From Escherichia coli (lineage in GTDB: Bacteria; Pseudomonadota; Gammaproteobacteria; Enterobacterales; Enterobacteriaceae), in assembly GCF_003334335.1 (NCBI RefSeq), contig NZ_QOWQ01000210.1: a stretch of DNA of 352 nucleotides; one strand, given 5' to 3'. This document shows, one piece after another, positions 131 to 352 of this stretch. The position numbers were made by a program, and so were the translations under genes. Each line of letters begins with the position of its first letter. The first letter of the stretch is position 1. The notes beneath the pieces were generated by a model. It did not search any database. It was not told the origin of the DNA and saw nothing but the letters and a program-made list of their open reading frames with translations.

Positions 131-167
131 CCTGTCATCGTTAAACCATTCTTAACCGATTTTCTGT

Positions 168-172
168 GAGGA
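168..172 (+). promoter_or_regulatory. Shine-Dalgarno sequence (GAGGA) for the antitoxin gene
   Basis: Seen in sequence: GAGGA at 168-172 with a 7-nt A/T-rich spacer (173-179, TTTTATC) before the GTG at 180. This is canonical spacing for an enterobacterial ribosome-binding site. Confidence 0.6.
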
Positions 173-179
173 TTTTATC

Positions 180-352
180 GTGTCAGACGCACTCTCCGGG
201 ACAATGCTTCCCGACGACAATCACGACCGCCCCTGGTGGGGGCTGCCCTGCACCGTGACGCCCTGTTTCGGGGCACGTCTGGTGCAGGAGGGTAACCGCC
301 TGCATTACCTTGCCGACCGCGCCGGTATCAGAGGCCTGTTCAGCGATGCAGA
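180..352 (+). CDS. cbeA: CbeA/YeeU-family type IV antitoxin (YagB/YeeU/YfjZ family), N-terminal 57 codons; 3'-partial, continues beyond the window
   Basis: Seen in sequence: GTG start at 180, preceded by an in-frame TAA at 153-155 and the SD at 168-172; the frame is open to the window end. Translation: VSDALSGTMLPDDNHDRPWWGLPCTVTPCFGARLVQEGNRLHYLADRAGIRGLFSDA. Established knowledge, from memory: this closely matches the N-terminus of E. coli K-12 YeeU/CbeA (MSDTLPGTTLPDDNHDRPWWGLPCTVTPCFGARLVQEGNRLHYLADRAGIRG...), including the long N-terminal extension that separates YeeU-type proteins from the shorter YfjZ/YafW paralogs. Full-length proteins are about 120 aa, so roughly half the gene lies outside the window. 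Confidence 0.85.
   Translation, partial: MSDALSGTMLPDDNHDRPWWGLPCTVTPCFGARLVQEGNRLHYLADRAGIRGLFSDA

Follow-up and report, generated by a model that had tools for sequence, protein, structure and literature searches.

In type II toxin-antitoxin (TA) systems, the antitoxin binds to operator repeats, direct or inverted, in the promoter upstream of its gene. Type IV pairs of Escherichia coli behave differently: type IV operons are not autoregulated, be it by the toxin or by the antitoxin, the mRNA levels staying the same when either gene was deleted, for all three type IV pairs of K-12, and the upstream genes were judged to be in the same operon (Wen et al., 2017; PMC5371832). Mutants of strain 042 in hns and in hha show joint de-repression of this entire region (PMC6480617). 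Here we consider a 352-nt stretch of an E. coli genome (the window) that ends in the 5' part of a type IV antitoxin gene, cbeA, and in particular the 49 nt directly before this gene (positions 131-179). This segment has a short repeat just upstream of the antitoxin gene and in this respect resembles type II operators. Unlike them, it has no consensus promoter, its repeat is not conserved, and the adjacent antitoxin is of type IV, without autoregulation (PMC5371832). The segment is an ordinary cbeA leader with a ribosome-binding site, known in kind and lying in a well-known locus. Taken as a whole, the following reading is probable: transcription comes from upstream, the leader provides the Shine-Dalgarno (SD) sequence within an unstructured, A/U-rich stretch, the repeat is due to chance, and the ORF preceding the leader is a gene relic.

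The window matches, at 100% identity, the yeeT–cbeA junction in a CP4-44-like island that many E. coli chromosomes carry. Of 5,426 complete genomes of E. coli, 4,804 have one or more related copies of the locus. According to the RefSeq annotation of a 100% identical locus (L001) and to tblastn with YeeT, positions 1-17 on the plus strand are the 3' end of yeeT, a DUF987 gene, with the TGA stop codon at 15-17 (CDS 5796-6017 of L001 ends at window position 17). The 5' part of cbeA (yeeU), also on the plus strand, occupies positions 180-352 (CDS 6180-6548 of L001). It starts with GTG, its translation begins VSDALSGTMLPDDNHDRPWWGLPCTVTPCF..., and its pN/pS is 0.26-0.29. In the same record cbeA is followed by a gene of the CbtA toxin family (6638-7015), the two forming a type IV CbtA/CbeA module, and in related loci PF06154 and PF06755 are present on neighbouring genes. 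Both the annotation and the translation thus confirm the preliminary description, made from the sequence alone, in which the downstream gene was taken to encode an antitoxin; it is CbeA/YeeU of a type IV TA pair.

Between yeeT and cbeA, the identical RefSeq record has an annotated intergenic region of 162 nt (18-179). The preliminary description had given the spacer as 49 nt, which is indeed the length of 131-179 when counted from the TGA at 128-130 that closes a plus-strand ORF of 37 codons (17-130), unannotated in this record. This ORF, however, is a dead fragment of a deleted gene and not a functional gene. Since yeeT ends at position 17 and what lies between there and 130 is a relic, the non-coding gap is 162 nt and not 49 nt.

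The relic is the 3' end of a DUF8835-family gene, as seen from both homology and pN/pS. Positions 17-127 align to residues 178-214 of an intact DUF8835 protein of 214 aa with 84% amino acid identity, while the first 177 codons are absent. The intact gene is 645 nt long, lies between yeeT and the antitoxin gene, and ends at the very stop codon that is at 128-130 in the window; in the window allele ∼550 nt, that is, most of the gene, have been deleted. The ATG of the relic overlaps the yeeT stop codon (cTGATGt), where it was placed by the deletion. Carriers of the intact gene are fuller islands, including those of IHE3034, STEC309, and 23CRST030, in which the 49-nt spacer, the position of the stop, the SD, and the start are as in the window; the spacer of STEC309 has TTAAACCATTCTTAACC, identical to the window. 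Annotation of the intact gene varies from hypothetical to DUF8835 to “antitoxin of toxin-antitoxin stability system”. Positions 131-179 on the plus strand, now an A/T-rich, untranslated cbeA leader, are therefore ancestrally a DUF8835-to-antitoxin spacer.

In eight relic copies sharing the deletion junction, the relic codons had pN/pS of 0.96 and no third-position excess, compared with 0.22 for the same 37 codons in seven copies scored as intact, one of which lies on a short contig holding only residues 104-214. For the whole intact DUF8835 gene pN/pS was 0.25, indicating purifying selection. Hence, the 214-codon ORF of the intact islands is under purifying selection, whereas the last 37 codons retained in the window drift neutrally. 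The relic ORF is open in all eight copies, but few independent substitutions have been sampled and this may be due to chance. The relic allele is very common among E. coli genomes: a 41-mer spanning the junction was found at at least 4,160 places in at least 2,981 of the 5,426 complete genomes. More generally, a short ORF beside TA genes can be the remnant of a deletion, and a reading from the sequence alone may then misplace the start of the intergenic region.

Some minor features of the relic should be mentioned. Where its stop codon is mutated, PGAP sometimes calls the relic a “hypothetical protein” (L003). The deletion junction at 17/18 is flanked by a direct repeat, CGTCACCCTGAA (2-13) and CGTCACCCGGAA (23-34), with 11 of 12 positions matching, and a similar CCGTCACCCGGAA is found within an intact DUF8835 gene (L004 2410-2422). 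The repeat may bear on the origin of the deletion or on later conversions.

The yeeT–cbeA region of the K-12 cryptic prophage CP4-44 belongs to the same locus family, with 96% identity over window positions 145-352. It shares the SD region (GAGGA in the window, AAGGA in K-12), the GTG start codon, and the cbeA and cbtA genes downstream. By contrast, its deletion of the DUF8835 gene is larger and independent, fusing the gene's first ∼25 nt to spacer position 145, which leaves a gap of 73 nt with no relic ORF, no first repeat copy (TTAAACC), and TTAGCC in place of the second (TTAACC). In the MG1655 gap (L002 3040-3112), ATGAGCAGAATTATCGCCACTACCG is kept in fusion to spacer position 145, and a 16-codon ORF ends in the SD region. 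The paralogous K-12 regions ykfH–yafW and ypjJ–yfjZ are of this family as well.

Other alleles have lost part of the spacer itself. A 34-nt deletion (L042 2065-2088; L064-L066 2140-2165) leaves TGA CCTGAGGACTTTATC GTG, in frame; 424 genomes carry this allele with a 15-nt spacer, the genes on either side of it being annotated. In 29 genomes the TGA is moreover changed to TTA, yielding a DUF8835–CbeA fusion ORF of 343 aa (P0021 and relatives, carrying PF06154).

The translation signals of cbeA are clear. The preliminary description had noted a T-rich run and an SD following the repeat, and both are there: T-runs at 160-163 and 173-176 lie on either side of GAGGA (168-172, plus strand), which precedes the GTG at 180 by 7 nt. 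In 15 aligned E. coli copies, AGGA (169-172) and positions 160-163 and 174-179 were invariant, likewise TTTATC. In distant orthologs the aligned SD position reads GAGG or GAGA, and an ATG start codon is found at the same place. The GC content of the spacer is 0.325, versus 0.5-0.75 in the flanks. RNA folding revealed no structure beyond that of shuffled sequences (minimum free energy −26.2 kcal/mol versus the mean of −26.4, z = 0.05), and the centroid fold leaves the SD unpaired, with little structure around the SD and the start codon. An Rfam covariance search of the window returned no family, the best hit being SECIS_2 with 15 bits (gathering score 70, E = 4).

Constraint on the rest of the spacer is less evident. 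The same spacer, 49-51 nt long, comes after the intact DUF8835 gene in E. coli as well as in Kluyvera, Serratia, Pluralibacter, and Yokenella, and the E. coli spacer aligns significantly (z 3.5-5.6) with those of genera whose DUF8835 proteins are only ∼50% identical. In these alignments, the spacer identity is 0.52, versus 0.39 at saturated fourfold sites, and two TTAA-like cores ∼11 nt apart fall in aligned columns, Yokenella reading TTGAAAC…CTTCAT. On the other hand, within distant genera the spacer diverges faster than fourfold sites (identity 0.65 versus 0.77), and the overall diversity of the E. coli spacer, 0.113, is near the synonymous levels of the flanking genes. Therefore, the constraint on the spacer is weak and acts chiefly on the ribosome-binding region. 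Still, judging from the cross-genus alignment, the TTAA columns, and the TCATCGTTAA block (135-144), invariant in 15 of 15 E. coli copies, there may be some constraint beyond the SD.

The repeat noticed initially consists of TTAAACC at 141-147, as originally located, and TTAACC, which is at 152-157 of the same strand, one base off the position 151-156 first given for it. Among dinucleotide-preserving shuffles of the 49-mer, 61% hold some 7-mer together with a 6-mer copy of it bearing one deletion, and a repeat-finding search of the window did not report the TTAAACC/TTAACC pair. The gapped self-alignment score of the spacer is high (13 versus 7.7 ± 1.7 in shuffles, P about 0.0075), but its source is a T-rich pattern that repeats every ∼11 nt, overlaps itself, and is heavily gapped, and not the pair. 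This weak self-similarity extends over positions 136-176 (CATCGTTAAAC / CATTCTTAAC / CGATTTTCT...), and may reflect only the low complexity of the T-rich leader.

We counted the alleles by matching haplotype-specific 41-mers in complete E. coli genomes. The pair is present in allele A, that of the window (492 places), and in allele A2, which differs in the SD-proximal sequence (1,360 places). It is absent from haplotype B, the commonest allele, which reads TTAAACT…TTCACC (4,409 places). One copy remains in the K-12-type deletion allele (1,093 places in 945 genomes), where the first three to four bases of the first copy are removed and homology to the window starts at position 145. The 34-nt deletion has removed both copies and the first T-run (425 places), and both copies are also lost in the allele combining this deletion with the TGA to TTA change and the in-frame gene fusion (29 places). 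Hence, 1,852 places with the pair stand against 5,502 with none or half of it, and the 34-nt-deletion alleles account for another 454. One or both units are missing in ∼72% of the typed E. coli copies (5,502 of 7,354 places), or in ∼76% once the 34-nt-deletion alleles are included (5,956 of 7,808). Moreover, among the thirds of the spacer, the one holding the repeat varies most, with diversity of 0.137 versus 0.091 and 0.105 in the 15 aligned E. coli copies. The conservation of TTAA(A)CC in orthologous spacers, which the preliminary description had proposed to check, thus does not hold, and its tentative assignment of the half-sites to a regulator finds no support. Being at the chance level and not conserved, the pair fails as an operator; it is a chance coincidence of one allele group, superimposed on two loosely conserved TTAA-like spots. 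A plausible-looking “operator” may thus turn out to be an allele-specific product of chance.

Two other readings of the same positions were tried and rejected. Stop codons in three frames (TGA at 128, TAA at 142, TAA at 153) are not conserved, as haplotype B lacks the third and its cbeA frame is open upstream. A leader motif CTTAACC, suggested by the DUF932 leader in L001, did not recur in other leaders.

No convincing sigma70 promoter had been recognised in the spacer at first, and this is borne out: a consensus scan found no plus-strand promoter-like site in the window, and the best plus-strand pair of −35 and −10 hexamers with a spacing of 16-18 nt in positions 1-179 scores 7 of 12. CTGTCA at 132-137, initially named as the best −35-like hexamer, matches TTGACA at four of six positions. 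The accompanying statement that every −10 candidate matches TATAAT at only three of six positions was wrong, as TGTCAT (133), TTTTAT (173), and TATCGT (176) match at four; these either have no usable −35 partner or overlap the start codon. The supplements of E. coli transcriptome papers contained no transcription start sites for the locus.

The gene order around the window suggests where transcription may come from. The DUF932 gene, an antirestriction gene, radC/yeeS, yeeT, (the DUF8835 gene), cbeA, cbtA, and the DUF5983 and DUF957 genes all lie in the same orientation, the gaps between them measuring 0-93 nt. A scan revealed neither a consensus plus-strand promoter nor a strong terminator between the DUF932 gene and cbtA; strong plus-strand terminators are located upstream of the DUF932 gene. 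Hairpins resembling strong terminators come after the IrmA gene and the DUF905 gene (L001 3496-3524 and 3805-3834), and one more after the DUF957 gene (L004 4230-4265), bracketing a putative transcription unit from DUF932 to DUF957. A search of the ∼48 nt preceding the DUF932 gene revealed no promoter of this putative operon. In most other genera (20 or more), the gap between yeeT and the antitoxin gene is 20-31 nt. Such a gap, as well as the 15-nt spacer of the deletion allele, leaves no room for a promoter.

It is plausible, given the synteny, the short gaps, and the promoter scan, that cbeA is co-transcribed with the upstream island genes. The initial suggestion of co-transcription with the upstream ORF could therefore stand for the island genes, but not for the ORF itself, which is a relic and not a gene. 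In such a scheme, transcription would reach cbeA from upstream, along a long, tightly packed, same-strand island operon. The leader would provide an unstructured stretch, whose A/U-richness may also play a role, and the GAGGA SD 7 nt before GTG; ribosomes would terminate upstream and then load on cbeA within the polycistronic mRNA. The comparative data thus favour type IV TA pairs being expressed within a long island operon and having no autoregulated promoter of their own, in agreement with the published lack of autoregulation.

An own transcript of the TA pair, started from a weak or non-consensus internal promoter in the spacer or elsewhere in the 162-nt gap, is very unlikely. TA modules usually carry their own promoter, the region is an A/T-rich patch, and CTGACC (127-132) followed after 17-18 nt by TCTTAA or CTTAAC is among the best pairs, the downstream hexamer being CTTAAT in three distant orthologs. 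However, this is the poor score of 7 of 12 mentioned above, obtained with no A at the second −10 position in a region where the plus-strand scan was empty. Moreover, two common deletions take the candidate apart, the K-12-type one removing its −35, and the 34-nt one keeping CTGACC but removing the −10 and everything in between. In BW25113, a K-12 derivative with the K-12-type deletion, cbeA and cbtA are still transcribed (PMC5371832), and the short distance of 20-31 nt in most genera also speaks against a promoter here.

It is very unlikely that the pair of TTAA cores, which are separated by roughly one helical turn, binds a regulator or a nucleoid protein that helps silence or tune the TA genes. 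Alignment of the cores across genera and the invariance of TCATCGTTAA in the 15 E. coli copies agree with a binding site, as does repression of the region by H-NS and Hha in strain 042 (PMC6480617), and one version of this explanation is an H-NS nucleation site, as TCGTTAAAC(C/T) resembles the H-NS motif tCGATAAATT (Lang et al., 2007; PMC2094087). The match is 7 of 10 in the window and 8 of 10 in haplotype B, with the T-A step, but shuffles reach these values in 43% and 7-9% of cases, respectively, and it may be due to chance. The cores themselves are not maintained: the commonest allele has TTCA for the second, K-12-type copies have lost the first, both are deleted at 454 places, and the Yokenella sequence departs from TTAA at both. 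Furthermore, the antitoxin does not autoregulate (PMC5371832), and the structure model of the DUF8835 protein shows no known DNA-binding fold.

The DUF8835 family is large, and its fold is predicted with confidence but has no solved relative; some genomes have a natural DUF8835–CbeA fusion in frame. On a further reading, the conserved linker of 49-51 nt and its pair of TTAA-like cores would act as a coupling or regulatory signal by which the expression of a third, uncharacterised partner, the DUF8835 protein, is tied to the CbeA antitoxin, and which would persist in relic copies such as the window merely as a fossil; the probability of this is likewise very low.

Finally, it is highly improbable that an antisense RNA started from a minus-strand promoter runs through spacer and relic and so shapes the spacer sequence: CTGACA (186-181) and GAAAAT (164-159), 16 nt apart, form the sole promoter-like site in the window (9 of 12, 0.1 expected per shuffle) and recur in L001 and L004, but the match is weak, codons 1-2 of cbeA read in reverse complement account for the −35 and the T-run likewise for the −10, allele A2 (1,360 places) has GAAAAG as the −10, distant orthologs lack the site, and no Rfam family matches. 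The minus-strand site (186-159) is present in both alleles A and B.

Two observations on the distribution of these genes may be added. An E. coli-like cbeA (87-97% amino acid identity) is found on short contigs (L007, L008, L010, L011, and L040) of assemblies labelled Collinsella, Lachnospiraceae, Arthrobacter, and Mesorhizobium, with L010 and L040 at about 1x coverage; most likely, these are contamination or mis-binning and not true hosts. In Mixta tenebrionis (L029 3360-4007), a DUF8835 homolog follows the antitoxin gene instead of preceding it, and an IMG/VR viral contig (L043 1501-2148) has the same arrangement and match statistics, while the distant viral contigs L044-L053 carry a DUF8835 homolog with no YeeT or YeeU homolog within ∼1.5 kb on each side. 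Given this varied placement, the DUF8835 gene behaves as a movable accessory gene.
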